64,000 bases of DNA from Candidatus Latescibacterota bacterium (GCA_965243025.1 CBDETY010000003.1:3264001-3328000); one strand, 5' to 3'; shown: positions 32,739 through 48,225, numbered from the stretch's first letter. A program made the numbers and translations. The notes: generated by a model from the sequence alone, not told the origin.

Positions 32739-34882
32739 AGGCCCGAACGGCCCTGTTCCTCGCCGCCCATTTCTTGTTGGCTCACGGGGTGGGCCACGGC
32801 CAGGAGTTCCCCGTCGGGGCCTGGTTCCCGGGGCTGTTCAACAACCAGGCGGAGCATTTTGCGGAGCGGCTCGACCAGGTGGTCGAAGCCAACTTCAACA
32901 CCATTCACGCCGCCCTCGGAGTCAGGAACGATCCTTCGGTCAATGGGGTCTTCCTCGATCTCGCTCACCAGCGGGGACTCGACGTCCTGCTGTACAGCTG
33001 GAATGTCCCCCCGGCGTGGCGGACGGCCAGCCGGACCTACTGGACCAAGACCGTGGAAGCGGAGCACCGGAGGTTCTTCACCCACCGTGTCGGGACCCGG
33101 GACGGAGGTGCCCTGCATGCGAATACCGCAGACCATACCCCGGGACTCCTTCTCGACACCCCCCCGGAGGGCCCGGGGGTCTTCCTGCGTTACCGGGAAC
33201 AGAAACTGAATGACCGCGGGCAGGTCGTCGAAAACAGGGTGCGTCACGGGATACACGTCTTCCGCCTCAAGACGGACGACAACAGCAGCCCGGAACGCAT
33301 CGCGACCCTGAGAATCCTCAGGCACTCGGACGGCACCCTGCTGCGCACGCGGGATGTGCGGGCGCTGGAATTCCGCGAGGTCGATACCTACCAGGATTTC
33401 CCGATCCGCTACTCCGTTCCCCGCGGCGGCGACTGGGTGCGCTACCAGGTCGAATGGCACGGGACGGGGAACCTCTGGGTCGACAGGATCAGGGCCCACG
33501 ACAGTTACGGCTACAGACTGTTTTCCGGGGATTTCGACGCCGATATCGTCAACGACCTGGCCGCCTATGACGGCGTATCCGTCGACCCGCCCTGGCGGTT
33601 CTACATGGAGGACGAGCCCCATTGGACCGAGAAGGACGAGAGCATCGCCTACCTGAACGACCTGATAAAGGCGCAGACCGGAAAGTCGGGGGTGGCTTCC
33701 TTCCACCAGACCCGCCAGGATTACATGCGGCATTTCGTCTACACGGTCTTCCCGTCGGAGTTCCTGGTAAACTTCTACACTTTCGGGATTTACGTGCCCG
33801 AACCGGGCCAGGCGCGCTACGCGACCCGCCTGCAGAGCGCCCTGGACAGCTACGTCACCTGGTACGGACGCGCCCGGGAGGTGGCCAGGGAGGCCGGCAT
33901 CCCCCTGTGGGCGGTCATCCAGGCCCACAGCTGGCCGAACGGCCTGCGCGACCCGACCCCGGAGGAAATCCGGGTTCAGGTCAATCTCGTCCTCGCCCAC
34001 GGCGTGACGGGGATCTTCTACTTCATGTATTCCAGCCATACCGACGAAGGCGGCCGGCCGGATCTGCAGGGCCTGGTGGACGGGGACTACCGGATCACTC
34101 CCAAATGGAGAGAGGTGCAGGCCCTCAACCGGATGTTGGGGGAGCTTGACGATACCCTGCTGCAGCTGACCTCGGACGCCGTCTTCCGCGGCGACGCTCC
34201 CGAATCCCCGGTCCGGCGGCTTTCCGATCCCGCGGATTACCACCTCGGCGCCTTTACCCACGCGGACGGAACGCGCTACCTGATGGTCGTCAACCGCCGC
34301 TGCCAGCCCTGGCCCCGCAGGCCCCGGACGGTGACCGTCGAACTGGATGCGTCCGAACTGAACGGCCCGGCCTGGTCCTACCTGGCAAGGGATCTCCATA
34401 CCGGGGAGACGGCAGCCACCAGCAACGGACTTTCCCCTTACTTCAACCTCTCCCTGGGCCCGGGAGAAGGGAAGCTGTTCCGCCTCGAACCCTGGGACGA
34501 TCAGGTTGCCCTGAAGGGGGATGTAAAGGTTCCCGCGGGGGTGAAGCTGACCCTGCCTGCCGGAACGACGGTGACGTTCGCCCCGGGGGACGAGACCGGG
34601 GGCGGCAAGGATGACCTGCGTTCCGAGCTCATCGTCGAGGGCGCTCTCGACGCCGGCGCCGGCGGCATCACCTTCCGCTCATCCGATGAAGCCGCGGCCT
34701 CCTCCGACGGCGACTGGTACGGCATCCGCGTGGCAGCAACGGGAAACGCCGACCTTTCGGGCGCCACGATTCAGGACGGGCTCCGCTGTGTGGAGGCGTA
34801 CGAAACGAGCACTGTCGACATGACGGACGCCGCCATGGTCAACTGCGGCCAGGGCGTGGAACTGCTCTCGACTTCCCCGTAG
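32735..34882 (+). CDS. Secreted hypothetical protein, possible glycoside-hydrolase-like TIM barrel with an inserted beta domain
   Basis: GTG start overlapping the upstream stop; signal peptide; FPVGAW, FYMEDEP, PLWAVIQA, PTPEEIRVQVNLVLAHGVTGIFYFMY. Confidence 0.65.
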   Translation: MKARTALFLAAHFLLAHGVGHGQEFPVGAWFPGLFNNQAEHFAERLDQVVEANFNTIHAALGVRNDPSVNGVFLDLAHQRGLDVLLYSWNVPPAWRTASRTYWTKTVEAEHRRFFTHRVGTRDGGALHANTADHTPGLLLDTPPEGPGVFLRYREQKLNDRGQVVENRVRHGIHVFRLKTDDNSSPERIATLRILRHSDGTLLRTRDVRALEFREVDTYQDFPIRYSVPRGGDWVRYQVEWHGTGNLWVDRIRAHDSYGYRLFSGDFDADIVNDLAAYDGVSVDPPWRFYMEDEPHWTEKDESIAYLNDLIKAQTGKSGVASFHQTRQDYMRHFVYTVFPSEFLVNFYTFGIYVPEPGQARYATRLQSALDSYVTWYGRAREVAREAGIPLWAVIQAHSWPNGLRDPTPEEIRVQVNLVLAHGVTGIFYFMYSSHTDEGGRPDLQGLVDGDYRITPKWREVQALNRMLGELDDTLLQLTSDAVFRGDAPESPVRRLSDPADYHLGAFTHADGTRYLMVVNRRCQPWPRRPRTVTVELDASELNGPAWSYLARDLHTGETAATSNGLSPYFNLSLGPGEGKLFRLEPWDDQVALKGDVKVPAGVKLTLPAGTTVTFAPGDETGGGKDDLRSELIVEGALDAGAGGITFRSSDEAAASSDGDWYGIRVAATGNADLSGATIQDGLRCVEAYETSTVDMTDAAMVNCGQGVELLSTSP

Positions 34883-35313
34883 GGAAGCCGCGTCCCTTCG
34901 CGCCCCATCCCGCCGCTCGCGGCGCCGCTGCGCCCTCAGCCAACCAGCCCGCGCAGATAATCGCGGGAGAATTATATACATAATTCAGCAACGGTATTCC
35001 TCCCTTTGGCTGATCCCCTCGGAGGGTTTGGAAGCCGGTCACCGCTGAGAGTTCAGTTCAAATAGTGTGCTTGGGAGATTCAGGAACTGAGCCCTGCGGA
35101 AGAGGTCATCCTCCTGCGGAGAATACAGAAGCGGACAATTCCCGAGGGATCCTCCCGTTGCCTTGCAACCCGCAGGAATCGGCACCCTGGGTCGGAGAGC
35201 CACCGGTCTGATCGAGAAGGGGATTGCATCGAAACCTCCCCTGCCTGACCTCTCCAGGGCTGGAAGGCGGTGGCCGCCGGGGGGATTCAGTTCAGATCGG
35301 GGTGCCTGGGAGT

Positions 35314-36441
35314 TTAAAAGGAAAATTGCATTTGTATCGAATAGGTGTTGTCGGTATAGCTATGGGCGGGGTCGTTCGAGTCGTTGTCCGAGAACGCGTA
35401 TGCCAGCCGAGCCGCAATGTTGTCGAGAAGGTCCTGCTTGAAGCCGAAGCGCAACAGGGTAAGGTGGTCTCGTCGATTGGTACCGATCCCGGGAACTGTC
35501 CAATCCTGGTAAAACTTGAAATGGCGGCGCGCGGAAAGGCTCGCGTTGGAACGTGGTGTCAGTCTCCAGATGAACAAAGACACTATGCGGTGGTTGATGA
35601 AATTGAAATCGAAATCGTCCACGTCTCCATCGCGATGGCCGAATTCCCCCCCCTGTTCAGGTTCGCGAGAAAAGGATTCGTGGCGGGGGAGATTGCGGGT
35701 TGCCAGGTCGATATCAAACCGGTATGTCAAATTGGACAACACTTTACTCAAGACCATGCCTTCAAACTCGAAGCTGGCCGTCTGGCGGATCCCCCCCACG
35801 TTCTCGTTAAGGTCGGACAGGATGATTCTCGGGTCGATAACGCCTCGGTACACGCGCGCCTGATAGCCGGCCGAAACACGTGCAGTCGCGCTGAACCGCC
35901 GTCCGAGCCGGCCTTCGACCATGACACTGCTGTACGTGCTGCCTTCGCTGTTGGGAAAGTGCTTGTTCCGCAACTCGGCCCCGAACCGGGACGACCACGA
36001 CGGATTCCATCGAATCCGGAGTTGACCACTGATATCCTGCTTGAAGTATTCGTTGATGCGGTCATTGGGCTGGTGCCGCAGGCCGAGGTTGGCAACGGTC
36101 AAGAGCGTGGCATCGCCCGAAAGCCTGCGGTGCCAAAGACCTGAGAGCAGGTGATCGTAGCGATTTTTCCGGGTTACATCCGCAAAGCGACGCGGGGCCA
36201 TCTCATAGCGTACTGCGATGCGGGAACCGGGATCAAGCTTCGCCCTGACATGGATCCCGGCCCAAATATACGCGGCAAAATCCTGTTGTTCGCCCCGTTC
36301 TGCCGGCACCTGAAAGACATTGTCTTCGTACTGGTAGCGGAGGTCGAAAAAGGGCTCGGTCCGCAACGATGAATCGGCGAAAACCAGGCAGGGGGTGCTC
36401 AGGACGAACAACCAGAGCACGGCTGCAACTCTCAACGACAC
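35314..36441 (-). CDS. Putative outer-membrane beta-barrel protein
   Basis: Signal peptide; YEDNVF; alternating aromatic strands; ends MQFSF. Confidence 0.7.
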   Translation of the reverse strand: MSLRVAAVLWLFVLSTPCLVFADSSLRTEPFFDLRYQYEDNVFQVPAERGEQQDFAAYIWAGIHVRAKLDPGSRIAVRYEMAPRRFADVTRKNRYDHLLSGLWHRRLSGDATLLTVANLGLRHQPNDRINEYFKQDISGQLRIRWNPSWSSRFGAELRNKHFPNSEGSTYSSVMVEGRLGRRFSATARVSAGYQARVYRGVIDPRIILSDLNENVGGIRQTASFEFEGMVLSKVLSNLTYRFDIDLATRNLPRHESFSREPEQGGEFGHRDGDVDDFDFNFINHRIVSLFIWRLTPRSNASLSARRHFKFYQDWTVPGIGTNRRDHLTLLRFGFKQDLLDNIAARLAYAFSDNDSNDPAHSYTDNTYSIQMQFSF

Positions 36442-36453
36442 GTGTGGATACCG

Positions 36454-37347
36454 TCACTTTCCCTGGAGCATATTTTCGAGTTCCTTGGCGAGATGCAGGG
36501 CTTTCTCATCGTGGATTTCTTCTTTGGCGTACCAGCTCTCCCGTTTGGCTCGCCAATATTCCAGCGCCGATTCCGCCTCCGCAATCTCTCCTTCCAGTTC
36601 AGCGATATCGAGGGTGCGGTCGAGGTCGAATTCGTCCTCTTCTCCGCGGCGAATGTCGCGGAGCAACTCCAGCATGTTGCGTCGCAAATCGAGTACTTTC
36701 CCGGTTTCGCGGATCTGCCGGTCAAGCTCTCCGATTTTGCTTCGTATAATATCCTGTTGGTCTTTGACCACGGCCAATTTCTGCTGGATATCATCGGGGC
36801 CGTCGGTCTGCGCCGGGGTGACATCCAGCGACAACAGAAGCTCACTTGACTCTCCGGCTATCTGCTCCCGGTAGGTTTCTGATTCTTCCTGAAGTTTCAG
36901 CACCTCGGAAAGGATCCGGGTCCTGGTCTTGTGATCTTTGGCGAGGCGCGCTTCCCCGGAAAGCCGCTCGATTTCGTCATTCAGCAGGCCCACGAGCGTT
37001 CGTTTCCTGGCCACCGATGCCTCGGTGAGGGCATAGATCCGGTCGTCGAGCGCCTGGATCCGGTCCGATAATTCCCGGGAAGCCTGAAGGTTGTTCTGCA
37101 ACTGCCGCTCAAGCAATCGGTCGCTGCCTTGTTGCAGGTCTTGTTTGATCGTTCGGATCCTATCGGTCAACTGCTTGTTTTCGCCCAGCAGCTTGTTGCT
37201 CTCCCCCGAAATGCCTTCGACCTGTTCGGCGAGTCGTTCAATCTGTATTCGCAAGTTCTGCAGGGTTGGCTGTTTTGCGAACCCCGCTGGCACCGCCCCG
37301 ATTAAGATGGCGAAAGACAGCAAGAGACACTGCCTGTCAAAAGGCAT
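36454..37347 (-). CDS. Secreted/periplasmic coiled-coil protein
   Basis: Signal peptide ending AGFA; heptad L/I-rich charged helices throughout. Confidence 0.75.
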   Translation of the reverse strand: MPFDRQCLLLSFAILIGAVPAGFAKQPTLQNLRIQIERLAEQVEGISGESNKLLGENKQLTDRIRTIKQDLQQGSDRLLERQLQNNLQASRELSDRIQALDDRIYALTEASVARKRTLVGLLNDEIERLSGEARLAKDHKTRTRILSEVLKLQEESETYREQIAGESSELLLSLDVTPAQTDGPDDIQQKLAVVKDQQDIIRSKIGELDRQIRETGKVLDLRRNMLELLRDIRRGEEDEFDLDRTLDIAELEGEIAEAESALEYWRAKRESWYAKEEIHDEKALHLAKELENMLQGK

Positions 37348-37370
37348 GGGCCTGAACGCTTGACGGGAGA

Positions 37371-38708
37371 TTAGAGTTCATACTTCTCAAATTTGTAGCG
37401 GAAAGTTGTTCGTTCGATGCCGAGCAATTTTGCGGCGTCGGCTTTGACCTTGTTCGCCTTCAGATAGGCATCCCACAAAAGCTGCTTTTCAAAAGCCTCG
37501 ACCCGCTCCGTCAGGGTGCCGCCCTCTACGTGGTTTTCAGGCGATTGAGCGTTCAGCGAGAGATCCTCAGGCGCGATTTCCTTGCCCTGTGCCAGCACCA
37601 CGGCGCGTTCGATGGCGTTTTCGAGCTCCCTGACATTGCCCGCCCAGGAGTGCGTCGTCAGCAATTCCATTGCGCCCGGATGCACGGACGACACCTTCTT
37701 GCCGATCTCGGCGTTGTACTTGAGCAGGAAATGGGCCGCGAGCAGCGGGATGTCTTCGCGACGTTCGCGCAAGGGCGGAACCTCGATGGGCACCACGTTG
37801 AGGCGATAGTACAGGTCTTCGCGGAAGGCCCCTTCCCTGATGCGGTCGGGAAGATTGCGGTTGGTCGCGGCCACGAGCCGGACATCGACCGAGATCGTGC
37901 GGGTTCCCCCGACCCGTTCGAATTCCCCTTCCTGCAGGACGCGCAGCAGTTTGACCTGCATCGCCGGCGTACTCTCGGCAATCTCGTCGAGGAACAACGT
38001 ACCGCCGTCGGCGATCTCGAAACGTCCGGGTCTCATCTTCACGGCCTGGGTAAATGCCCCTTTCTCGTGGCCGAAGAGTTCGCTTTCCAGCACGCCCTCC
38101 GACAGCGCCGCGCAATTGACCTTGACGAAGGGTTTTTCCCAGCGCGGACTGTGCTGGTGGATCGCCCGGGCAACGAGCTCTTTCCCGGTGCCGCTTTCCC
38201 CGCCGATGAGCACGGTCGAAGGGGTTGGCGCGACGGTTTTTATCCTGCGAAAGACCGCTTTCATCTGAAGGCTTTTTCCCATGATCCCGTCAAACCCGTA
38301 ACGCAGCTCGTCTTCCCCGCGCAGGTAGGCGTTTTCCTGACTGAGACGGCGTCCTTCAAGAGCCTGTTCGGTTTTTATTTCGATCTGTTCGAGCGTGTAC
38401 GGTTTGGTTATGAAATCCACCGCTCCCTTTTGCATCGCCTCAACGGCCAACTCAATGGTGCCGAAAGCGGTCATCATCACGACACTGGTTTCGGGCGAGA
38501 TCTCGGCAATGGCGGCAAGGACTTCGAGTCCGGTTTTCTTGGGCATCTGGATGTCGACCATGGCCAAATCGAAAGAGTACTTCCCGACCTCCGAAATCGC
38601 ATCCTCTCCGTCGCAGGCAACATGGGTCGAATGCCCCAGGCCCCCAAGCGCGAGGGCGAGCCCTTCCCTGGTGCTTTTATGGTCATCGGCGATCAGTATC
38701 CGGCTCAT
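37371..38708 (-). CDS. Sigma-54-dependent response regulator (NtrC/AtoC/ZraR family)
   Basis: ILIADD receiver, GESGTGKE Walker A, ESELFGHEKGAFTQA, LFLDEI, FREDLYYRL, WAGNVRELEN, Fis-type HTH. Confidence 0.95.
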   Translation of the reverse strand: MSRILIADDHKSTREGLALALGGLGHSTHVACDGEDAISEVGKYSFDLAMVDIQMPKKTGLEVLAAIAEISPETSVVMMTAFGTIELAVEAMQKGAVDFITKPYTLEQIEIKTEQALEGRRLSQENAYLRGEDELRYGFDGIMGKSLQMKAVFRRIKTVAPTPSTVLIGGESGTGKELVARAIHQHSPRWEKPFVKVNCAALSEGVLESELFGHEKGAFTQAVKMRPGRFEIADGGTLFLDEIAESTPAMQVKLLRVLQEGEFERVGGTRTISVDVRLVAATNRNLPDRIREGAFREDLYYRLNVVPIEVPPLRERREDIPLLAAHFLLKYNAEIGKKVSSVHPGAMELLTTHSWAGNVRELENAIERAVVLAQGKEIAPEDLSLNAQSPENHVEGGTLTERVEAFEKQLLWDAYLKANKVKADAAKLLGIERTTFRYKFEKYEL

Positions 38709-40165
38709 GTCCGTTTTCCTCGGTCCATAGTCGTCGGCAGTTTTAGGGCAAACGTCGTGCCATCGCCCTGCTTACTCCGGCATTCGATGGTCCCTCGGTG
38801 ATGCTCGACCAGCCGCTTGACGATGGCCAACCCGAGCCCGGTGCCCTTGTCCTTGGTGGTGAAAAAGGGGATAAATGCGCGTTCCGCCGTCTCGGGAGAC
38901 ATTCCCACCCCGGTATCCCGAACCTCGACGCGGATGGCATCGGCGTCCGCATCGACAAAACCTTCGACGGCGATGGTTCCGCCCCGGTCGATTGCTTGCG
39001 CGGCATTCTTGATGAGATTGGTGAACACCCGCTTGAGACGGTCGGCGTCTGCTTCGATGGTGGGCAAGGTGTCCAGGTTCTTCGTTTGAACCTCGATTTC
39101 GGCCCCACGCAACTCCGCATCGAGCAGCGCCAGCACGGAAACGACGGTGTCCGACAAGTCCACCGGCTCGGTCTGCAGCGGCCTCGGACGCGCAAAGTCG
39201 AGGAATTCGCTGACCAGCTGGTTCAACGACTGCACTTCCCCCTCTACTCGTTCAATCAGTTGCTCCGCCTTCGGGTCGGCCGGGATCTGGCGCTTGAGCA
39301 AACCCAGGAAAATCCGCATCCCGTTAAGCGGATTCCGAACTTCATGGGCGAGCCCGGCCGATAGTTGCCGAAGCTCCTCTGTCATGCCAGACACCTGCTG
39401 GTCCCGCTTTTGAATCGCGATGCTCATCTCGTTGAATGTCGTGGCCAGCTCGCCGACTTCGTCCTCGCTGCGCGTTTCAACCTGCGTCCCGAATGCCCCG
39501 GCCTTGATCTGTTGGGTCGCTTGCGAGAGTCTCTCAATCGGCACGACGATTGACCGGGCTAAAAAAATGCTGAGAACGACTGCAAAAACCATACCAACGA
39601 CGCCGATGAGTACCATGTTGCGGCTCATCCCCGCAAGGGTTTCGAGGAACAGCACACTAGCATCTACAGCGAGAATGGCGACGATGGCACCGTCTTCGTC
39701 GCGAATGGGAGCGTAAGCCGACCGGTAAAAAGCATCGTCTTTGCCGTGAAAGGCGACGGAGGCAGCCCCTGTCCCTTCCTTGGCCTCGTCAATATGGATT
39801 CTGTCTTCGCCCAGTGAGCGGTATTGACTGCCGATGGGCACATCGAGGCGGGAATCGACGAGGCTTTTGTATTCAAGGTCGAATACGTACATCGCCTGCG
39901 CCTCCGAAGCATCGCGCATGGACTGCAGCTCCTTTTGCAGCATTCGGTACAACCGCGTGCCTTCTTCGCCCGGCTGGAGTGCGCGCAAGTGGCTTCCGTT
40001 GAGTTGCGCTGCAGAGGTCCTGGCGACCGCCACGAGCCGCTCGCCCATCTCGGCGTCGAGCGCACGCTTTGCCGCGTCGTAAAACAGGTAACTGCCAGCG
40101 GTAAAAACCAGGACCACGAGCAGCGCAATGGTCAGGGTTGTCTTGGTTTGGAGCCGGATCTTCAT
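38705..40165 (-). CDS. Membrane sensor histidine kinase with periplasmic domain and HAMP
   Basis: Two TM segments, HAMP (DEVGELATTFNEM), LAHEVRNPL, NLIKNA, DTGVG, GTGLGLAI; stop overlaps the regulator start. Confidence 0.95.
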   Translation of the reverse strand: MKIRLQTKTTLTIALLVVLVFTAGSYLFYDAAKRALDAEMGERLVAVARTSAAQLNGSHLRALQPGEEGTRLYRMLQKELQSMRDASEAQAMYVFDLEYKSLVDSRLDVPIGSQYRSLGEDRIHIDEAKEGTGAASVAFHGKDDAFYRSAYAPIRDEDGAIVAILAVDASVLFLETLAGMSRNMVLIGVVGMVFAVVLSIFLARSIVVPIERLSQATQQIKAGAFGTQVETRSEDEVGELATTFNEMSIAIQKRDQQVSGMTEELRQLSAGLAHEVRNPLNGMRIFLGLLKRQIPADPKAEQLIERVEGEVQSLNQLVSEFLDFARPRPLQTEPVDLSDTVVSVLALLDAELRGAEIEVQTKNLDTLPTIEADADRLKRVFTNLIKNAAQAIDRGGTIAVEGFVDADADAIRVEVRDTGVGMSPETAERAFIPFFTTKDKGTGLGLAIVKRLVEHHRGTIECRSKQGDGTTFALKLPTTMDRGKRT

Positions 40166-40300
40166 GCCCTTTTCGCACCTACACGCAGTAATAAAGGAAT
40201 ATATCCGCTTTGATTAACAATGGGTCCATGGCGTGGGCGGCTGTGCGGAGCAGCATGACCATTGAGCCTCGCTGAATTTACCGGAAAAACTTCCTTGTCC

Positions 40301-40335
40301 GGCAAATTTCTGCCTCCTCCGACGGGAATTTGCCG
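40301..40335. promoter_or_regulatory. Putative enhancer (UAS) palindromes for a sigma-54 activator
   Basis: GGCAAATTTCTGCC and CGGGAATTTGCCG, 55-90 bp upstream of the -24/-12 element and conserved in the paralogous promoter. Confidence 0.5.
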
Positions 40336-40387
40336 CGTCCGGTCGGGATTCCCCCCAAAACCCCCCTGATTCAGTCCCTTTCCTTTC

Positions 40388-40402
40388 TGGCACGGAGATT
40401 GC
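40388..40402 (+). promoter_or_regulatory. Sigma-54 -24/-12 promoter
   Basis: TGGCAC-GGAGA-TTGC, exact match to TGGCAC-N5-TTGC. Confidence 0.85.
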
Positions 40403-40476
40403 GAAGCGGCATGGCGTCCATGCCACATCGAAATGATGTGGTCTGAACTACCCACTCAAACTCCGAGGAGGATGCC

Positions 40477-41205
40477 ATGAAACTCACCATGAGCTACCCG
40501 ATCGTCGCGGTGCTGGTTCTCGCGCTGGCAGGGATGGTCGGCTGTTCCGATAATCCAGTATCGCCCACAGGCAGGTCTGAGCCGGCCGGAGAGCATGGAG
40601 GCAACGAAGGCGGGGAAGGCAGCGAAAGCCACGCCGGCAGCGAAGGCGGGGGAGGCGAGGGAAGTGAGACCAGCGGCCATGCTGAAGGCCCCGAAGGCGG
40701 CGGCGGAGGCGATCCATCCAGCCCCATCCTCGCCCTCGACGAGTCCTGGGACGGTTTCGTCAACGGCGTGCGCGTGGCCATGTCCTATGACCCGGACAGA
40801 CGCTCGTTCTCCGGCATCGTCGAGAACACGACGGCGCAGACCCTCTGCTCCGTCCAGATCGAACTCAACCTCAAGCAGGGGACGCGCACGGTCGTCGAAC
40901 TGGGGCCCTCTCCGGTCGGCGACCTGGCAGCGGGTGCCAGTGCGACCACCGAACTGTTGGTCGACGACGAGCCGCAGGCCGCGGGAGTAACTTTTGACGC
41001 CTGGGAGATCCATCCGGAGGTGTTTGACTGCAACGGCCCCGGTCCCAATCCTCCAGGTGGCGAGGGGAACGAAATCAGCGGCCATGCCGAAGGTCCGGAG
41101 GGCGGCGGAGGGGGTGAAAGCGGCGGTGAGCACGGGAGTGGTGCAGGGGGTGGCGAAGGCGGGGAAAGCCACGCCGGCCGGGAAGGAGGCGAAGGCGGCG
41201 GTTAG
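40477..41205 (+). CDS. Lipoprotein with one beta-sandwich-like domain flanked by Gly/Glu/His-rich tracts
   Basis: GAGGAGG RBS; lipobox GMVG-C; GIVENTT...ELGP...DLA.G...WEIHPEV; GEHG/ESHAG repeats. Confidence 0.85.
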   Translation: MKLTMSYPIVAVLVLALAGMVGCSDNPVSPTGRSEPAGEHGGNEGGEGSESHAGSEGGGGEGSETSGHAEGPEGGGGGDPSSPILALDESWDGFVNGVRVAMSYDPDRRSFSGIVENTTAQTLCSVQIELNLKQGTRTVVELGPSPVGDLAAGASATTELLVDDEPQAAGVTFDAWEIHPEVFDCNGPGPNPPGGEGNEISGHAEGPEGGGGGESGGEHGSGAGGGEGGESHAGREGGEGGG

Positions 41206-41231
41206 GTGAAATCCCAGATAGCGAAAGCGAG

Positions 41232-41275
41232 AAAAAAGCTGGCCGGTTGTACTTTCAATCGGCCAGCTTTTTTTT
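41232..41275 (+). terminator. Rho-independent terminator (possibly bidirectional)
   Basis: AAAAAAGCTGGCCGGTTG-loop-CAATCGGCCAGC followed by a T run. Confidence 0.85.
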
Positions 41276-42178
41276 GCCTGATACGGCTGGGTCGGATGTT
41301 CAAAAAGCCGGCAATCGGTGGAACGGTCGGGCTTCGGAGAGGGAGACAGAGGAGCCGGTCTCGGGTATCGGAAGAGGACGCAGGAGGCTACGCTTCGAAG
41401 GAGGACAGTCGCGGGTGTTACCCGGAAGATTTCAGGAACTGTGAGCGTCGAGGTATCGCTGGAAGCTGACTCGACCGAGGTCTGGCGGTGAGGGTATCCA
41501 GCAAGCTTGCCGGAATTCTGCAAGAATCGACCTGATGGCACTACTTCCGACGGCAAGAGCTTCGCCGACGTGGAGACCCCTTCATCGTCTGGGGTTTCGA
41601 GCAGGCGGTCGAGGGGTCTGCCTCCGATTCTACCCTGGCATGGTCTTTTGCTGAGACCCGCCGTTTCCGTTTGGAGAGGGAAACACACCGTTTTGCATAG
41701 GCCATAAACGGCTCCTTCCCGCGTTTATCTACGCAAATGGTTTAATACCCGAACGACTTCCGGTAGGCTTCCTTCTGGCTTTTGGACATTCCCCCGATCT
41801 TCCGTCGGCAGTCGGGACACCAAGTAGCCCTGCGGCCTATTGACTGAAACCGAACTCCGCAGGGACACACGTAGTCCCGAGGGGGAGTCACAATCCGGGC
41901 CAAATCACCCTTTCCCGATCCGGGGCGCCTGAGAATTCGGTTTTCATCCTCTCTCTCCCATCGTTGTTCCTTGAAATCCCACCATTCGGAGTCAAATCAC
42001 TTTCTCTCCGACTCGGAAGTTTCCCTGTAAACGGTGCGGAGTCTCCTTTGTGTCCACATCCCACAGCCGCACCGTCTCCTCCCTTGCCCCGGTGGCTACC
42101 ACATGGAACGGCGCGGCTGCGGCTGCTGTTCCGCAGCAGCGGACGACTTCCCTGTTGACGACTTCCTGTTCAGAACCT

Positions 42179-42425
42179 TCAGCCAGCCTGGGAATCGATG
42201 AACTCCACCACTTCTTGTACGCTCTTCAGCTCGGTACAATGCTGGGGGGTAAACGTGACCGTGAATTCCCGGGAGACCAGTCTCGCGAAGGCAACGAGAT
42301 CCGTAGAAGGGAACGCCGGACTCCATGAGGCTGAAGTTCAGATCCTCGGGCAGATCTATCGGCTTGCCATCCACTTCGAGGTTTTCGCTGATGAGATTTC
42401 GGAGACGATCTGCGGTTGCGGACAT
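42179..42425 (-). pseudogene. Acyl carrier protein-like gene with an apparent 1-nt frameshift near 42310
   Basis: MSATADRLRNLISENLEVDG...SLMESGV, then in a shifted frame PSTDLVAFARLVSREFTVTFTPQHCTELKSVQEVVEFIDSQAG-stop; ACP-like size and helix pattern. Confidence 0.65.
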
Positions 42426-42452
42426 GGGTCAATGGATCCTTTCTCAAAGGTA

Positions 42453-42496
42453 AGGTGAGTAATGGTCAATCTGTTAGGTGAGTAATGGTCAATCTG
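42453..42496. repeat. Tandem 21-bp duplication
   Basis: AGGTGAGTAATGGTCAATCTG at 42453-42473 and 42476-42496. Confidence 0.9.
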
Positions 42497-43065
42497 CTAT
42501 CTGAGATAGAGGAGCCGGCTTGTCTGCACCCCTCCGGGGTATTGCAGGCGCGTGATATAGACCCCCGCGGCAACCTCCGAACCCCGCTGGTCGCGGGCAT
42601 CCCAGTGAACCTGGTACACCCCGGTCTCCTGAACCCATCCACCAGCGTGCGCACCGGCTGCCCGAGGACGTTGTAGATCACCAGCCGCACGGACCCGGGG
42701 GAGTGCAGGCGGTAGCGAATCTGCGTGGTGCTGTTGAAGGGGTTGGGCACATTGGGGCCCAGCCCGCTGGCGGATGCCACTGGCTTGGCCGCGGCCAGTG
42801 ATTCGACGCCTGCAATCCTCATGCCGCCGCCCAGCGTCAGTTCCAGGACCTGGCGCCGGTTGCGGTTGAGGGGAATGCTGTCCCACTGTCCGACGACCTC
42901 GCCGTCGGCGTTGCGGGCAGGGGCCTGATAGAAACCACTCCCCTGCCTCCCGCCGTAAATAGTCAGGGACGCCTGGCCGTCGGCATCGGTGACCGCGTTC
43001 CAGGCGAAATCGCGGGAACGGCCGGCGATGGCGGGGGAAAAAAGAAGGGGGACCAGGCTGTTCAT
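42497..43065 (-). pseudogene. Truncated, frameshifted paralog of the C-terminal half of the 30259 gene (unnamed module + FlgD-Ig)
   Basis: FSPAIAGRSRDFAWNAVTDADG...WDSIPLN...LELTLGGGMR...PNVPNPFNST; the tail VHWDARDQRG..AAGVYITRL is in another frame. Confidence 0.75.
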
Positions 43066-43118
43066 CGGCAGTCTGACCGGGCACCCCTGTTAACTGTCAA
43101 CCAAATTAGGAGGATGAG

Positions 43119-43622
43119 ATGGTTGCACTAATGATCCTGGCACTGGTGCTGTGGGGATGCAGCGACAGGGAAGCTTCCCCGATGGCACCCATTGGTAATT
43201 CCCTCTGCGACGGCGGTGAGAGCGGCGACTAACATGGTCGAAGCGGCGAACACGGCAACGAAGGCGGAGAAGGCAGTGAAGGGGGCGGGGAAGAATCCGC
43301 TACTCAATACGCTCGAGCCGACACCTTCGATGAAGTGAGGGCCGGTGCCCGTCTGATCATTTCCTATTTTGAGGATGCGGGGGAATTCAGAGGCACGGTG
43401 GAGAACACCACTGACCGTACTCTGCAGCAGGTTCGGGTTGAAGTCCATCTGTCCAACGGCGTTGAACTTGGACCGACAACGCCCACAGACATGGCTCCTG
43501 GGGAAACCATCGAGGTAGCCCTGTCCGTTTCGGAAAATGACCGCACTTTCTCCACCTATGGAGCCCATCCCGAGGTCGGATCGTCTGGACTGGAGGACAT
43601 GGCCGACGGCGGGGAATGCTGA
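43119..43622 (+). pseudogene. Third Gly/Glu/His-rich lipoprotein paralog, interrupted by in-frame TAA at 43230-43232
   Basis: AGGAGG RBS; MVALMILALVLWG-C lipobox; GGESGD-stop-HGRSGEHG; GTVENTT...VEVHLSNGVELGPTTP...HPEVG. Confidence 0.75.
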
Positions 43623-43624
43623 AA

Positions 43625-43657
43625 AAGAGGGGGCAGGCAATCGTCCTGCCCCCTCTT
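43625..43657 (+). terminator. Hairpin/terminator after the 43119 gene
   Basis: AAGAGGGGGCAGG-caatcgt-CCTGCCCCCTCTT, perfect 13-bp stem. Confidence 0.7.
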
Positions 43658-44198
43658 ACTAATCCAACGCAGGGGATTGCAATGGCTCTCAAGTTGCCCT
43701 CGGCGCGCAGACCTCGTAATTCCGCACACCAGCGACACCCCTCCACCTGCAGTCTCTGAACCTCCCTGGCACACCGATCCGGACTGAGCCCCGGGGAAAA
43801 CGGCCTTTAGACCCCAGGGGATGAGTCCCGATCCCCGCAATCCCTCCTGGCCTGGGCAGCTTCCGATCCACGGTGCCGTTTCCGGGAGTGTATGGCGTGC
43901 TTCCGGTGTCCTGACCCCCTGTTCATTAACCCCGAGATCCGGAATACCGATGCTGATTGGCCGACTTCTCAGCACGTAGTCAAGTGCTGTTGTCAGCCAG
44001 CCTGACGTCCCATCTCCCGGCGAAACAGCCAGGATCCGGGGGTCCTTTTTCTCTCTGGGTTCCTCCAGGTTCACCAGTTTTTTTTCGAAAATCGCGCTTT
44101 CGATCAAGTATTCGCCCGTCGTTTCTCCTGTGGGTGGGCTGGTGTGGGGAGCATGAACCCTGAACCTCGCTGAATTCACCGGGAAAACTTCCTTGTCC

Positions 44199-44212
44199 GG
44201 CAGATTTCTGCC
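44199..44212. promoter_or_regulatory. Putative enhancer (UAS) palindrome
   Basis: GGCAGA-TT-TCTGCC, same position as the 40301 site. Confidence 0.5.
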
Positions 44213-44287
44213 TCTCCTCGGGGGAAATTTGCCGCCCCGTTCCAGATTCTTCCCCAACAGCCCCTCGATCCAGTGCCTTTTCCTGTT

Positions 44288-44303
44288 TGGCACGGAGATT
44301 GCA
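44288..44303 (+). promoter_or_regulatory. Sigma-54 -24/-12 promoter
   Basis: TGGCAC-GGAGA-TTGCA, exact consensus and identical core to 40388. Confidence 0.85.
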
Positions 44304-44374
44304 AAGCGGCAAGGTGTCCATGCCACATCGAAAGATGCGGTCTGAACCACCCACTCAAACTCGGGGAGGATGCC

Positions 44375-46000
44375 ATGAAACTCACCATGAGCAACCCGAT
44401 CGTCGCCGTGCTCGTTGTCGCGCTTACTGGAATGATCGGCTGTTCCGATAATCCAGTAGCGCCCGCAATGTCCGCAGGCCAACCCGCTGAATCAGGCAGG
44501 TCTGAGCCGGCAGGAGAGCATGGGGGCAACGCAGACGGAGAAGGCAGTGAAGGCAGGGAAGGCGGAGCAGCCCGCATAGTCGCCAGCGCAGGCGCCGACG
44601 AAGGCGGTGGTGAAGGCAGCGGAAGCGGCGAAGGCAGCGAAAGCCACGCCGTTAGCGAAAGCGGCGGCGAAGGCGGCGACATAGCTCAGCAACTTGCCCC
44701 CAACCAGCGCTACGACCAGACGCGCAACGGCGCGCGGTTGACCATGGCGTACAGCGGGTATGCGTTCCACGGCACCGTGGAGAATACGACGAACCGGACT
44801 CTGCGCCGGGTGCGGGTGGAAGTGCACCTGTCCGACGCAGCCAACGCGATCACCGCGGAGCTGGGACCCACCCCGCCGACGGACCTGGCGCCGGGTGGGA
44901 CGCTGCCCATCAACCTGTCCGCCGTCGGCCAGAATTTTGCCAGCTGGTCGCCCCATGTGGAGGTCGGCTCCGGCGAGGGCGGAGAGGGCGGCGGCTCCGG
45001 CGAGGGCGGAGAGGGCGGCGGCGAAGGCGGAGGCGGCGAGGGTAACGAGGCCAGCGGCCATGCCGAAGGCCCCGAAGGCGGCGGAGGCGATCCATCCAGC
45101 CCGATCCTCGCCCTCGACGAGTTCTGGGACGGCGTCGTCAACGGCGTGCGCGTGGCCATGTCCTATGACCCGGTCAGGCGCTCGTTCTCCGGCCTCGTCG
45201 AGAACAGGACGGCGCAGACCCTCTGCTCCGTCCAGATCGAACTCAACCTCAAGCAGGGGACGCGCACGGTCGTCGAACTGGGGCCGTCTCCGGTCGGGGA
45301 TCTGGTACCGGGTGGCCGTGCGACCACCGAACTGTTGGTCGACGACGAGCCGCAGGCGGCGGGAGTATCTTTCGACGCCTGGGAGATCCATCCGGAGGTG
45401 TTTGACTGCAACGGCAACGGCCCGGGTTCAGGCGGCGAGGAGAACGAAACCAGCGGCCATGCCGAAGGCCCCGAAGGAAGCGGAGGCGGTGAAAGCGGCG
45501 AAAGCCACGCCGGCAGCGAAGGCGGCGGCGAAGGCGGCGACACAGCTCAGCAACTGGCCCCCGACCAGCGCTACGACCAGACGCGCAACGGCGCGCGGTT
45601 GGTCATGGTGTACAATTCCCGCATGGATGTCTTCTACGGCATCGTGGAGAATACGACCAACCGGACTCTGCGCCGGGTGCGGGTGGAAATTCACCTTTCC
45701 GACGAAGCCAACGGGATCACCGCGGAGTTGGGACCAACCACGCCGACGAGCCTGGCGCCGGGCAGGAGGCTGCTCATCAACCTGTCTGCCGCCGGCCAGA
45801 CCTTTGCCGGCTGGTCGCCCCACGTGGAGGTCGGCTCCGGCGAGGGCGGGGAGGGAGGAGGCGGTGAAAGCGGCGGTGAGCACGGGAGCGGTGCAGGGGG
45901 TGGCGAAGGCGGTGAAAGCGGCGGTGAGCACGGGAGTGGTGCAGGGGGTGGCGAAGGCGGCGAAAGCCACGCCGGCCGGGAAGGAGGCAACGGAGGTTGA
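44375..46000 (+). CDS. Lipoprotein with three homologous beta-sandwich-like domains (A-B-A) separated by Gly/Glu/His-rich linkers
   Basis: GGGGAGG RBS; lipobox GMIG-C; three G.VEN.T...ELGP...LAPG...W..H.EV units; middle unit near-identical to the 40477 protein. Confidence 0.85.
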   Translation: MKLTMSNPIVAVLVVALTGMIGCSDNPVAPAMSAGQPAESGRSEPAGEHGGNADGEGSEGREGGAARIVASAGADEGGGEGSGSGEGSESHAVSESGGEGGDIAQQLAPNQRYDQTRNGARLTMAYSGYAFHGTVENTTNRTLRRVRVEVHLSDAANAITAELGPTPPTDLAPGGTLPINLSAVGQNFASWSPHVEVGSGEGGEGGGSGEGGEGGGEGGGGEGNEASGHAEGPEGGGGDPSSPILALDEFWDGVVNGVRVAMSYDPVRRSFSGLVENRTAQTLCSVQIELNLKQGTRTVVELGPSPVGDLVPGGRATTELLVDDEPQAAGVSFDAWEIHPEVFDCNGNGPGSGGEENETSGHAEGPEGSGGGESGESHAGSEGGGEGGDTAQQLAPDQRYDQTRNGARLVMVYNSRMDVFYGIVENTTNRTLRRVRVEIHLSDEANGITAELGPTTPTSLAPGRRLLINLSAAGQTFAGWSPHVEVGSGEGGEGGGGESGGEHGSGAGGGEGGESGGEHGSGAGGGEGGESHAGREGGNGG

Positions 46001-46077
46001 GGATGCCATGACCAAAGGAGTGGGTGAAATTTACCTAGTGCCAACTCGCCCACTCGACGAGATAGCGAAAGCGAGAG

Positions 46078-46118
46078 CAAAGCTGGCCGGTTGTACATTC
46101 AATCGGCCAGCTTTTTTT
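46078..46118 (+). terminator. Rho-independent terminator, paralogous to 41232-41275
   Basis: AAAAGCTGGCCGGTTG-loop-CAATCGGCCAGC followed by a T run. Confidence 0.85.
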
Positions 46119-47303
46119 GTCTGATGCAGCTGTGTCGGATGTTCGAAAAACCGCATCGGTCCGGGGGAATCCGGGCGATGGGAAGCGGAAACTGGCGTTT
46201 TTTCAGGTAACGGCGCGACACCGAGGAACGGATCTGCCGAAGGCTTTGCGGGACTGCCTCCGCGACCTCGTAGTTCTCCTTGGCGGATGATGTCTTCCTG
46301 GCGAGCGCAGCCGGCACCTCGACCCGCAAGGTCCGAGTCGTCCCGGTACACCGATCCCGACTCTGACACCCCAACGTCGAACAGCTTTCAGACCCAGGGG
46401 ATCAGCCACGGAGATCCTACCCCCCCTTCGACCGTAAACCGTGGCTCCCGATCCACGGTGCAAATCTGGCATGCCTGGGTGATCTGGATAGCCTGTGCCG
46501 TTCACCCGAGATCTGGGAAGCCGATTCAGATCACCTTGTTTCAACACGAATCCTGTGAAGTTTCCAGCCAGCTGACATCCCGATTTCGCCTAGCGGCGTC
46601 TTTCAGCACCCGCACCCACGGGCACCTCGAAACCATTTCCTGAAACTCTCAGGCACACCATCTGAACTGAACCCCCCTCCTCAAGCAGGGGTCCCCTTTC
46701 AGATTCAGGACCAGGTACTGGAGGTTCTCGATTCCGCACCCCCTCTCGATCAGAGCGGAGGCTTTCCGATCCTCCCCCGATTCCGTCAAGCTGATCGCCG
46801 GGCTCGGTAGCAATCGAAGGAGTAGGCTGTTCGGGGCCATGCAACGTTGCACCACCAAAGACCGACGCTTTTTTAAAAATCAGCGACGGAATTCAAGGTG
46901 CCTCCCCGTTCTTCTCCTGGAAACTCTTCAGTTCCTCGCTGATTGCGCTGCAGGGAAGGTTTTCGAACAGCTCCTCCCAGGTGACCCAGCGAAGTTGCAG
47001 CCGCTGAACCCGGTCAGCCACGTTCGAGGGATACCTCCAATCCGGAGGCTCGTCTCGTTTCTCCATGCGGCATAAATCGAGATTCTTGATGAGGTCCCAA
47101 CGATTGGTCTCGTATTCCCGGAATTTGTACTGGTAGAGGCGGGACAACCCGGGTGCAGACCGGAATGCTTTGGGGTTACCAGGGCGACGTATATGCGACT
47201 TGCATACCGGCCAGTCCCCCCCCGGGCATTTGGGCCCGATTCCGTAATCCCCCGGCCCACCGTGCTGGACAATTTCCGGGCCAATCCCCCCGTTTTTGGG
47301 AAA

Positions 47304-47392
47304 TGTCCCCCGATTCGGGGGCAATGTCCCCTGATCAGGGGACAAAAAAAAATCACCTGATCAGGTGACAAGAAATCACCTGATCGGGTGAT
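47304..47392. repeat. Array of four related palindromes (GATC/GATTC-centred)
   Basis: CCCCCGATTCGGGGG (47307-47321), TGTCCCCTGATCAGGGGACA (47325-47344, perfect), TCACCTGATCAGGTGA (47353-47368, perfect), ATCACCTGATCGGGTGAT (47375-47392, one mismatch). Confidence 0.85.
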
Positions 47393-47608
47393 ACCGGAGC
47401 CGACATTCGGAGCGATCTTTGTCCTCAAGATGAACAAGGTCGCTGCCGAAGAAAGGAGGTCATACTTGCAGCCGCCATCATTCCGCAAGAAAGGCCCATT
47501 CTCAACCAAGAAAGGAGGCATGAAGTGGATCTGATTGCCGTGGTGCTGGTAATCGTCGGCGTGGATCTCCTGCGTCGGCGACACCGGCGAATCGAAGGGA
47601 GACTCACC

Positions 47609-48063
47609 ATGACAAGGCTCATGGCAGTCATATCTGGGTCGGCTTCGCGGTTCAGACTCAGGCTCAGCCCGTAGTTACCGCTTCCCCGATGGAACTTCCC
47701 GGGTCGGTGACGGCGGAGTTGACGGATCTTCGCTCGGAAAACGGGAAGTGCTTCACGACGAGCTCCGGTCACAAACTGGCCGTGTTCTTCACTTCCCCGA
47801 TACACGGTTTGGTCGACGGCGAGTGGGAAAACCTTACCCGTGAACAGAGAGAAGAGAAGGCAGCCCTCCAGGCTTGGCCCCCCTATACGACCGGCTCCGG
47901 TAAAGCTCTCCAGGGGGGATATGTGGGTTATCCGATCAATGGAGCAACGCTCGACAAGGAAACTAACGGCTCTATTGATTGGTTTTCGTCCGACCGTAAT
48001 TTCGGAAAATGGAATACGGATAACAGGACATACCGCAGCATCTTCTCCTACTATACCCCCCGG
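47609..48063 (+). pseudogene. 5' fragment of a secreted protein gene, frameshifted in the signal peptide and cut at an IS remnant
   Basis: GAAGGGAG RBS, MTRLMAVI then shifted frame WVGFAVQTQA-QP...ELTDLRSENGKCF...; abuts IS1595-like sequence. Confidence 0.45.
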
Positions 48064-48225
48064 CCAAGCGGGTACTACGTCGGCCGTTTCCGCAGGAACT
48101 ACGCTCGCGGCGACCTTGCCGGATTTTCGGTCCATCATGCCGACAACGATGGTTTTTCCCTCCATCCACCGTTCCCGCAGTCTCTTGTCGGCGTGCTTGT
48201 TGGCCTCCTTTCCGCCGAAATAGCT
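48064..48225 (-). mobile_element. IS1595-family transposase fragment
   Basis: SYFGGKEANKHADKRLRERWMEGKTIVVGMMDRKSGKVAASVV matches the region after the first DDE aspartate of IS1595 transposases. Confidence 0.7.

Follow-up and report, generated by a model that had tools for sequence, protein, structure and literature searches.

A 64,000-nucleotide window of the genome of a Candidatus Latescibacterota bacterium (G000:C3:3264001-3328000; the genome comprises 6.8 Mb in three contigs) contains an envelope signalling module of about 6 kb, at positions 35314-41279, that is real, self-contained and well delimited. In this module, an operon encoding a sensor histidine kinase, an NtrC-type response regulator, a coiled-coil protein and a predicted outer-membrane beta-barrel lies divergent from a lipoprotein gene with an exact sigma-54 promoter, and a second lipoprotein gene with the same promoter is located downstream. 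Adjacency of this lipoprotein family to two-component systems is kept in at least three deep lineages and with two classes of regulator. We tentatively suggest that the module is a circuit similar to ZraPSR, in which the output lipoprotein may bind a cation monitored by the kinase, a reading that we consider plausible rather than probable.

The principal features are listed below, where T1 and T2 denote two subtypes of the repeated lipoprotein domain and ORF stands for open reading frame.

38705-40165, minus strand: sensor histidine kinase, 486 aa, with two membrane spans around a periplasmic domain of ~150 aa, then HAMP, HisKA and HATPase_c
37371-38708, minus strand: NtrC-type response regulator (sigma-54 enhancer-binding protein), 445 aa, from its ORF and Pfam matches; contact loop GAFTQA
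36454-37347, minus strand: secreted coiled-coil protein, 297 aa, with an N-terminal signal peptide (ORF)
35314-36441, minus strand: predicted outer-membrane beta-barrel protein, 375 aa, last gene of the operon (ORF and AlphaFold2)
40272-40374, plus strand: predicted upstream activating region A, nested inverted repeats read in the sequence
40388-40402, plus strand: putative sigma-54 promoter A, TGGCACGGAGATTGC (-24 GG, -12 GC), exact match to TGGCAC-N5-TTGC
40477-41205, plus strand: lipoprotein A, 242 aa, with lipobox ...GMVGC, a Gly/Glu/His tract, one T1 and a Gly/Glu/His tail
44170-44272, plus strand: predicted upstream activating region B, containing GGCAGATTTCTGCC (44199-44212) and, farther downstream, AAATTTGCCG (repeat family D8)
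44288-44302, plus strand: putative sigma-54 promoter B, an exact match whose 15-mer is identical to that of A (TGGCACGGAGATTGC)
44375-46000, plus strand: lipoprotein B, 541 aa, with lipobox ...GMIGC and T2-T1-T2 separated by Gly/Glu/His tracts

Gene organization and conservation of the module

The operon reads kinase, regulator, coiled-coil protein and barrel on the minus strand; the kinase and regulator ORFs overlap by 4 nt, and the gaps that follow are 22 and 12 nt. An initial annotation of the window, made by a model from the sequence, had described this operon as divergent from a lipoprotein gene, and the ORFs and the Pfam and NCBIfam matches agree with that description. The NtrC-family architecture is complete in the regulator, with a receiver, an AAA+ sigma-54 interaction domain and a C-terminal helix-turn-helix domain all above cut-off (Response_reg, 2e-26, 92.8 bits; Sigma54_activat, 5.6e-72, 241.3 bits; AAA_lid_14; HTH_8, 32 bits). 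In NCBIfam, the kinase and the regulator both fall below every equivalog cut-off, including those of AtoSC, ZraSR and NtrBC.

The named closest relatives are metagenome-assembled genome (MAG) records labelled Gemmatimonadota/Gemmatimonadetes or Candidatus Latescibacterota. These records align to the window over 35314-41279 only, which indicates that the module has sharp borders, and all five of them keep the order barrel-coil-regulator-kinase / lipoprotein as far as their contigs reach. In a scan of 168 genomes of the phylum, the lipoprotein family was found in 28 genomes and the barrel in 17, including the window's own; the barrel is restricted to one taxonomic family (16 of its 75 other genomes) and to four of 49 genera. 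The coiled-coil protein is strongly present in the same set of genomes, and its gene adjoins that of the barrel in 13 other genomes of that taxonomic family. Twelve kin genomes carry the barrel, coil and lipoprotein genes on one contig, 4.0-5.7 kb apart. Because the proteins are about 80-90% identical among these genomes, they represent few independent observations. Decay of the module looks joint across its genes: in G130 the barrel is split, the coil is truncated and the lipoprotein gives no match, G133 retains no more than a piece of the barrel, and in G138 fragments of the kinase and regulator adjoin a T2-only gene.

Sigma-54 promoters and upstream repeats

Both exact promoters, at 40388 and 44288, are located about 75 nt ahead of the lipoprotein start codons; the initial annotation had noted an exact promoter with upstream palindromes and its recurrence in a second unit. 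Region A contains an outer inverted repeat (CTGAAT at 40272-40277 and ATTCAG at 40369-40374) and an inner one (CGGCAAATT at 40300-40308 and AATTTGCCG at 40327-40335); the block CGGCAAATTTCTGCC spans 40300-40314, with the 14-mer GGCAAATTTCTGCC at 40301-40314. A ribosome-binding site is located downstream of promoter A, ahead of lipoprotein A. The 14-mer GGCARATTTCTGCC occurs twice in the whole 6.8-Mb genome, in both cases 87-89 nt before a lipoprotein promoter, and among the 22 exact sigma-54 sites of the genome it is found upstream of these two alone. Therefore, the predicted regulon consists of lipoprotein genes A and B.

The number of sigma-54 sites in the window is not above chance (five with at most one mismatch vs 3.4 expected). 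We nevertheless consider that the two promoters exceed chance, for five reasons in addition to their placement ahead of the start codons and their duplication. First, the genome encodes rpoN (443 bits vs a cut-off of 277). Second, all five kin records have an exact sigma-54 site at the same place. Third, when seven upstream regions are aligned, neither the repeat blocks nor the -24/-12 elements vary, whereas the leader shows a 24-nt indel and substitutions. Fourth, of the 22 exact sites in the genome, seven have one of the 17 enhancer-binding-protein genes no more than 5 kb away; random placement, repeated 2000 times, gave 0.55 on average and never more than 5. Fifth, the 14-mer is unique to these promoters. 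Thus, the predicted sigma-54 wiring of the lipoprotein genes is well supported, in line with the earlier regulatory proposal of a sigma-54 pair divergent from its target.

The 17 sigma-54 activator-like proteins of the genome have the contact loops GAFTGA (9), GAFTDA (3), GAFTNA (3), GAFTQA (1) and GAFTGT (1), and eight of them depart from GAFTGA at position 5 or 6. We also found an exact TGGCAC-N5-TTGC sequence at 38748-38762 (minus strand), within the 3' end of the kinase gene and about 40 nt before the regulator start codon. It could act as an internal promoter for the regulator, coil and barrel genes. However, the sequence coincides with the codons for DGTTFAL, and none of the kin records has it in exact form; it is therefore probably fortuitous, and for now we have rejected it as a promoter.

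Association with two-component systems outside the phylum

We examined 34 loci outside the phylum, 24 of them from Chloroflexota-named MAGs and 10 from metagenomes, by uniform tblastn over a range of 2.5 kb. A regulator and/or kinase gene was found within 2.5 kb of the family gene in 17 of the 34 loci, and in 13 of the 19 loci whose flanks extend for 2.5 kb or more in each direction. Here the regulators belong to the OmpR type rather than to the sigma-54 activators, the kinases have the HAMP-HisKA-HATPase_c architecture, and there is no coil or barrel. Two layouts occur: the lipoprotein gene is either directly upstream on the same strand or divergent. The same-strand layout, in which the lipoprotein gene lies 110-280 nt from the regulator and kinase, is found in Chloroflexota and in a low-GC lineage; L087 and L088 come from a 33%-GC anaerobe. 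Among the better NCBIfam matches of the Chloroflexota pair, all of them sub-threshold, are MtrA/MtrB and CseB. The initial annotation had proposed that co-occurrence of the domain with the kinase, regulator, coil and barrel genes be checked. The whole module is kept in five kin records and 12 genomes; outside the phylum the lipoprotein family is accompanied by OmpR-class partners and by neither coil nor barrel.

The kinases linked to OmpR-type regulators have a conserved acidic Glu/Gly/His loop in their sensor domain, for example YEYETESREGHEGESIGEGDEGFH and GESEEEIEGDEGEESGEENHCDE. In these kinases, which adjoin family members in Chloroflexota-named MAGs and in the 33%-GC anaerobe (L018:12013-12620 and L087:8821-9720, among others aligned), the composition of the loop resembles that of the lipoprotein tracts. 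At L087:6127-6681 (plus strand), a gene for a hemerythrin HHE cation-binding domain is located directly upstream of the lipoprotein-regulator-kinase trio.

Domains, tracts and predicted fold of the lipoproteins

The repeated domain of ~95 aa, which had been described as present in one or three copies, indeed occurs once in lipoprotein A and three times in B, and consists of two subtypes. The T1 consensus is DPSSPILALDESWDG...VEN...IELNLKQG..TVVELGP.PVGDL.PG...AWEIHPE, usually with a covarying Cys pair, and the T2 consensus is YD..RNGARL...G.VEN.T..L.RVRVEIHLS.G.ELGPTTP.DL.PG...W.PHAEVG.GE.; T1 is 37-41% identical to T2 copies in tblastn. T2 passes the NCBIfam model FxLYD_dom (NF038353; cut-off 23 bits), with 57.3 bits (1.1e-15) for B and 31.4 bits for a broken third copy, whereas lipoprotein A, which has T1 only, gives no match. 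One close homologue is named FxLYD domain-containing protein by NCBI. The family had been called uncharacterised, which is apt for its function, but the domain has already been catalogued. In Pfam, lipoprotein A matches no family and B reaches no cut-off. Our literature search found no paper mentioning FxLYD and listed nothing relevant on His/Gly-rich lipoproteins with two-component systems. A T1 search over 1.84 billion representatives gave 510 clusters (at 50% identity) at E <=0.001, of which 33 were at <=1e-30.

By pattern matching, the lipobox junctions read ...LAGMVGC followed by SDN in A and ...LTGMIGC followed by SDN in B, and a lipobox-like pattern is present in 82 of the 119 listed homologues that start with M. 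An ORF beginning at GTG 44273 would overrun promoter B; the true start of B is therefore taken as ATG 44375, which aligns with the start of A.

Lipoprotein A contains 23.5% Gly, 11.5% Glu and 7 His in 242 residues. Across the 118 measurable tract sets of 120 listed homologues, the means are 33% Gly, 17% Glu and 4% His, and at least one [EQSG]H[GAS] motif is found in 114 of the 118. The recurring His motifs are GEHG, ESHAG and SGHAEG. The earlier description of the proteins as Gly/Glu/His-rich therefore stands for Gly and Glu and for the recurrence of the GEHG/ESHAG motifs, but with His at 3-4% a more apt wording is Gly/Glu-rich with regularly placed His.

An AlphaFold2 model of a T1-T2 homologue has two confident, Ig-like beta-sandwiches (pLDDT 80-94), and every Gly/Glu/His tract in it has a pLDDT below 50, so that the tracts are predicted to be disordered. 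Invariant E-x-H (VEIHL) and H-x-E (PHAEVG) pairs are placed on two strands of T2, as are E-x-N and H-x-E in T1. The comparison of the fold that had been proposed was carried out with Foldseek and VIA and returned generic Ig-like sandwiches alone. The Foldseek matches of the two-domain model had TM values of 0.09-0.15, which are low since linker makes up most of that model; in VIA, a GH2 Ig domain came first (Z 8.3), followed by RbmA (8.1), SadB (7.6), YjhA (3cfu; 7.3) and a DUF1425 protein (3o0l; 7.2). No metal-binding fold stood out in the fold searches of this model, and the family profile gave no match at E <=1 among the sequences of solved structures. A protein atlas gave YcfL (0.84) and otherwise unnamed clusters (0.88-0.89); none of these reaches 0.9, from which a match counts as more than a lead.

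Related domains with GEHGG tracts are also found fused to a double Cache module, to a metallo-beta-lactamase fold and to GH43 (P0226, P0210 and P0250), and the metallo-beta-lactamase-fold fusion bears a very His/Glu-rich linker. Giant multi-repeat proteins carry related domains as well.

Proposed mechanism and alternative explanations

In the mechanism that we propose, the membrane kinase would sense an extracytoplasmic signal and phosphorylate the NtrC-type regulator, which would bind the nested inverted repeats 55-115 bp upstream and allow RNA polymerase-sigma-54 to fire the -24/-12 promoter, lipoprotein genes A and B being the only predicted targets in the genome. The products would be anchored by lipid at the N-terminus as FxLYD-type sandwiches joined by disordered Gly/Glu tracts. 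The tracts, possibly together with the Glu/His pairs of the domains, may bind the divalent cation that the kinase monitors, either a transition metal such as Zn, Cu or Ni, or Ca/Mg, and the lipoprotein would then act as an envelope buffer for this cation and might also dampen kinase activity in the way that ZraP restrains ZraSR. Up to transcription of A and B, the model is built on anatomy and conservation: the gene content, promoter, repeats, duplication, predicted folds and linkage to two-component systems in several lineages are observed, and we infer the pairing of the regulator with its DNA, the signal, the cation binding and the feedback. Binding of a divalent cation is favoured by the association of the family with sensing, by the Glu/His motifs and by the acidic loops of the kinases. 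The metal-sensing or buffering role suggested in the initial annotation would likewise draw on composition, GEHG-type motifs and acidic kinase loops. Two analogies come from the prion octarepeat, where Cu(II) is bound by a His with glycines after it, and from PhoQ, where an acidic patch binds Mg/Ca.

Several observations weigh against this proposal. As for the cation, we infer its binding for tracts in which His makes up 3-4% of residues and which have no Cys or Met motifs, and the fold is a generic Ig-like sandwich (best Z 8.3) that carries no functional signal. Across the loci scanned, the family has no neighbouring gene for metal transport, efflux or resistance. The kinase of the window scores 128.3 bits against the 292.55 of the heavy-metal kinase model (TIGR01386/TIGR01387 test), and the Chloroflexota partners remain below the heavy-metal models in the same way (147.6-156 vs 292.55 and 155-163 vs 279.2 bits). 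The scores for the ZraR model NF007689 (421.5 bits vs a cut-off of 760) and the ZraS model NF007688 (198 vs 479) are also low. The sigma-54 contact loop of the regulator is GAFTQA and not the canonical GAFTGA; the GAFT core is retained and the same loop is kept in four kin. Furthermore, no sigma-54 site with at most two mismatches is present on the minus strand at 40166-40387, before the kinase operon, which is unlike zraSR.

Linkage and sensing raise further difficulties. Six of the 19 well-flanked loci outside the phylum have no two-component system (L020, L027, L029, L030, L032 and L036). Within the phylum we fetched 13 solitary copies, most of them T2-only and one of them at C3:2.81 Mb of the window's genome; apart from the decayed G138 copy (L079), the remaining 12 are intact and have no adjacent two-component system, with a kinase ~7 kb away from the L071 copy. 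Neither BLASTP nor profile comparison detects a relationship between the sensor domains of kinases linked to sigma-54 and those linked to OmpR: the kinases align only from the last periplasmic strand onward, and the sensor-only profiles gave an E of 0.26 over 19 columns. A shared ligand is therefore not implied by homology. A local likeness between GEDRIHID and GDEGFHID is anecdotal, and we have dropped the idea of shared sensor-domain homology. Finally, the cation model leaves the roles of the coil and the barrel unexplained.

We also considered the possibility that the lipoprotein is an accessory co-sensor that tunes the kinase, through contact with its periplasmic domain or through a ligand-bound partner, with no role for a cation and with the tracts acting as spacers. 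In actinobacteria, the lipoproteins LpqB (with MtrAB) and CseA (with CseBC) are described as acting in this manner. The gene order in Chloroflexota and the low-GC lineage is that of an accessory-protein operon, the adjacency holds across regulator classes, and one homologue is fused to Cache sensor domains, all of which would fit a co-sensor. However, the kinase sensor domains are unrelated between lineages even though T1 of the window shares 79% identity with that of one Chloroflexota-named MAG (locus L010), so that a conserved kinase interface is unlikely. In addition, His-bearing motifs in the tracts are kept across lineages, and plain spacers would not need them. We therefore regard the co-sensor as an unlikely alternative. 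A complex prediction for the kinase periplasmic domain (residues 28-178) with T1 (residues 76-188), run without controls, gave a score of 0.01 (mark 0.32), which weighs in neither direction on binding.

A second alternative would place the lipoprotein at the cell surface or in the matrix, for example as an adhesin, a biofilm scaffold or an envelope spacer, which the coil and barrel of this lineage carry or hold while the two-component system times its production. In its favour, the barrel and coil are co-inherited with the lipoprotein gene, the fold resembles the biofilm scaffold RbmA and the lipoprotein SadB as much as it resembles other proteins, some barrel homologues have sub-threshold Slam matches (detailed below), and related domains occur in giant multi-repeat proteins. 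The barrel was modelled with AlphaFold2 from 17 homologues as a closed antiparallel barrel of 16 strands with moderate confidence (mean pLDDT 63, pTM 0.59), and together with the signal peptide this model has the hallmarks of an outer-membrane barrel. In VIA it matches solved 16-strand barrels with Z 15-17 over 260-300 residues, where porins, PelB, PgaA and FhaC are tied; porins, polysaccharide channels and two-partner secretion barrels fit it equally well. The Slam family PF04575 (SlipAM) gives 13.5 bits against a gathering score of 22 for the barrel of the window, and weak SlipAM matches occur in six of 17 barrel homologues (best E 0.004); all of these are below cut-off and confined to the C-terminus, and DUF481 (10 of 17) and BBP2_2 (6 of 17) match the homologues as well or better. 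The NCBIfam matches of the barrel, TIGR03016 and EpsL, are likewise C-terminal and below cut-off, and the coiled-coil protein has a weak DUF948 match alone in Pfam. The barrel family comprises 23 protein clusters among 5.8 billion.

Given that the barrel resembles any 16-strand porin or secretion channel, that its Slam matches are sub-threshold and that it is confined to one taxonomic family, display of the lipoprotein at the surface through the barrel, as the models stand, has almost no support. The lipoprotein family is much wider than the barrel, and in Chloroflexota and the low-GC lineage it flourishes with neither barrel nor coil; we consider a surface or matrix role distinctly improbable. 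The coil and barrel may anchor or export the lipoprotein, or may constitute a regulated channel of unrelated function.

The remaining alternative is an envelope-stress chaperone circuit in which the kinase senses misfolded proteins and the lipoprotein is a holdase like ZraP, Spy or CpxP, with metal secondary or absent. Holdases often have long, disordered, acidic tails. The layout is shared with ZraPSR, whose ZraP is described as a zinc-dependent chaperone that answers envelope stress (PMC4987338). This alternative is nevertheless very unlikely, since the lipoprotein is modelled as a beta-sandwich with no Pfam match to the CpxP/Spy/ZraP family and nothing in the neighbourhoods scanned points to protein folding.

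Returning to the cation-binding circuit, a broader form of it would make the lipoproteins a new class of partner, namely cation-binding accessory or effector proteins that are passed horizontally between phyla and rewired in each host to its own regulator class, here sigma-54, with the coil and the 16-strand barrel providing in this lineage an outer-membrane placement unrelated to Slam. T1 identity between the window and a Chloroflexota-named MAG is about 79%, compared with less than 30% for the neighbouring kinases. We regard this extension as improbable. The sigma-54 version is in any case a compact promoter-regulator pair with two predicted targets, suitable for reconstruction in a laboratory host.

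Duplication and shuffling of the lipoprotein genes

The following features complete the lipoprotein region.

41232-41270, plus strand: predicted terminator hairpin A, then a T run (repeat families D12 and I1)
43119-43622, plus strand: broken third copy with lipobox, tract and one T2, in a single frame except for TAA at 43230-43232
46079-46117, plus strand: predicted terminator hairpin B, a 15-pair stem, then a T run (repeat families D12 and I1)

The recurrence of the whole promoter-gene-terminator unit had been proposed earlier, and we located the second unit at 44134-46153, where it is 74-88% identical to the first from the upstream repeats through the hairpin: 40233-40629 corresponds to 44134-44554 (79% identity), 40635-41165 to 45016-45540 (88%) and 41092-41310 to 45890-46153 (74%). 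The third, broken copy reported at 43119 was also found; it contains the in-frame TAA, and no sigma-54-like site with at most two mismatches is located upstream of it. In the kin, the genes adjoining the kinase are of the T1-T2 type. Relative to these, A is missing about 300 nt (T2), with breakpoints in the tract-coding repeats, and B carries an extra N-terminal T2. Three-domain forms are also found in G136 and G129, and Chloroflexota homologues share the three-domain order of B. Thus, the duplicated target unit was probably shuffled by recombination in the repetitive GGN/GAR tract DNA, in the course of which A would have lost its T2, B would have gained a second T2 and a promoter-less T2 copy would have been broken. 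The locus illustrates how repetitive tract-coding DNA can move whole domains between paralogues.

A fourth member of the family is located elsewhere in the genome, at G000:C3:2809859-2810293 on the minus strand (L003, L081). It encodes a lipoprotein of the 170-aa class with one T2 and GEHGG tails, and there is no two-component system within 8 kb of it and no sigma-54-like site nearby.

Sequences surrounding the lipoprotein copies

An Rfam scan over 34500-47500 gave zero matches. Among 13 ORFs from the spacers between and beyond the lipoprotein copies, 12 have no Pfam family at E <=0.01, and the sole match is a sub-threshold FlgD_ig in 42500-43084. Two overlapping ORFs at 42466-43084 (minus strand) match TIGR04183, the C-terminal sorting domain of the type IX secretion system (T9SS), with 18.6 bits vs 23, in addition to the sub-threshold FlgD_ig, and the pair looks like a frameshifted remnant of a secreted protein between the lipoprotein copies. 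Directly after this T9SS-tail remnant, at 42450-42495, a 23-nt unit (GTAAGGTGAGTAATGGTCAATCT) occurs twice in tandem with 96% identity. The stretches 41300-42460, 43650-44130 and 46150-48200 (~4.5 kb) contain no ORF with a Pfam family and no Rfam match and do not align to the kin loci; they give the impression of DNA that has decayed or been rearranged beyond the end of the conserved module.

Comparison with known systems

Two-component systems with a dedicated extracytoplasmic partner, such as ZraP, CpxP, LpqB or CseA, reveal how bacteria gauge the state of their envelope, and few families of such partners are known. The FxLYD-tract family is a candidate for a new type of partner or effector, which can be tested by cation binding.

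The closest analogy in layout is ZraS-ZraR-ZraP of Escherichia coli and Salmonella, in which a kinase and an NtrC-type activator are likewise divergent from the gene of an extracytoplasmic protein with a sigma-54 promoter. According to PMC4987338, ZraP is a zinc-binding protein and zinc-dependent chaperone that responds to envelope stress and represses its own system, and divergent sigma-54 promoters serve both the effector and the kinase operon. The initial annotation had drawn this analogy while holding the effector to be unrelated to ZraP, and both points agree with our results: the layout fits that system as described (PMC4987338), and the effector of the window is predicted to be a lipid-anchored beta-sandwich with disordered Gly/Glu/His tracts. 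In contrast to ZraSR, however, the window has two extra genes, for the coil and the barrel, and a predicted sigma-54 promoter on the effector side only. The module thus differs from ZraSR-ZraP in its equivalog scores, in its effector family and in having no kinase-side promoter, and we do not consider it a member of that group.

The module resembles MtrAB-LpqB and CseA-CseBC in that a lipoprotein gene is kept beside a regulator-kinase pair, but there is no relation to LpqB or CseA in sequence or fold, and the lipoprotein of the window is a predicted regulated target outside the kinase operon. SilE/PcoE and CusF, with SilRS/PcoRS/CusRS, are periplasmic metal buffers that are induced by two-component systems and are largely disordered or of simple fold; they have His/Met motifs and OmpR-type regulators and occur in resistance operons with efflux pumps. 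Unlike in these systems, no pump is found in the loci scanned, and the heavy-metal kinase and regulator models are not reached. As in Slam systems, an outer-membrane barrel gene is kept beside lipoprotein genes. The Slam barrel has 14 strands, whereas the barrel model of the window has 16 and no periplasmic TPR domain. Finally, the lipoproteins themselves resemble FxLYD, YjhA/DUF4352 and YcfL/DUF1425, given that T2 passes the FxLYD cut-off and the predicted fold aligns with YjhA and a DUF1425 protein. T1, in contrast, is a distinct and highly conserved subtype outside the FxLYD model, and the FxLYD family description covers neither its pairing with T2 nor the GEHG-type tracts nor the association with two-component systems.

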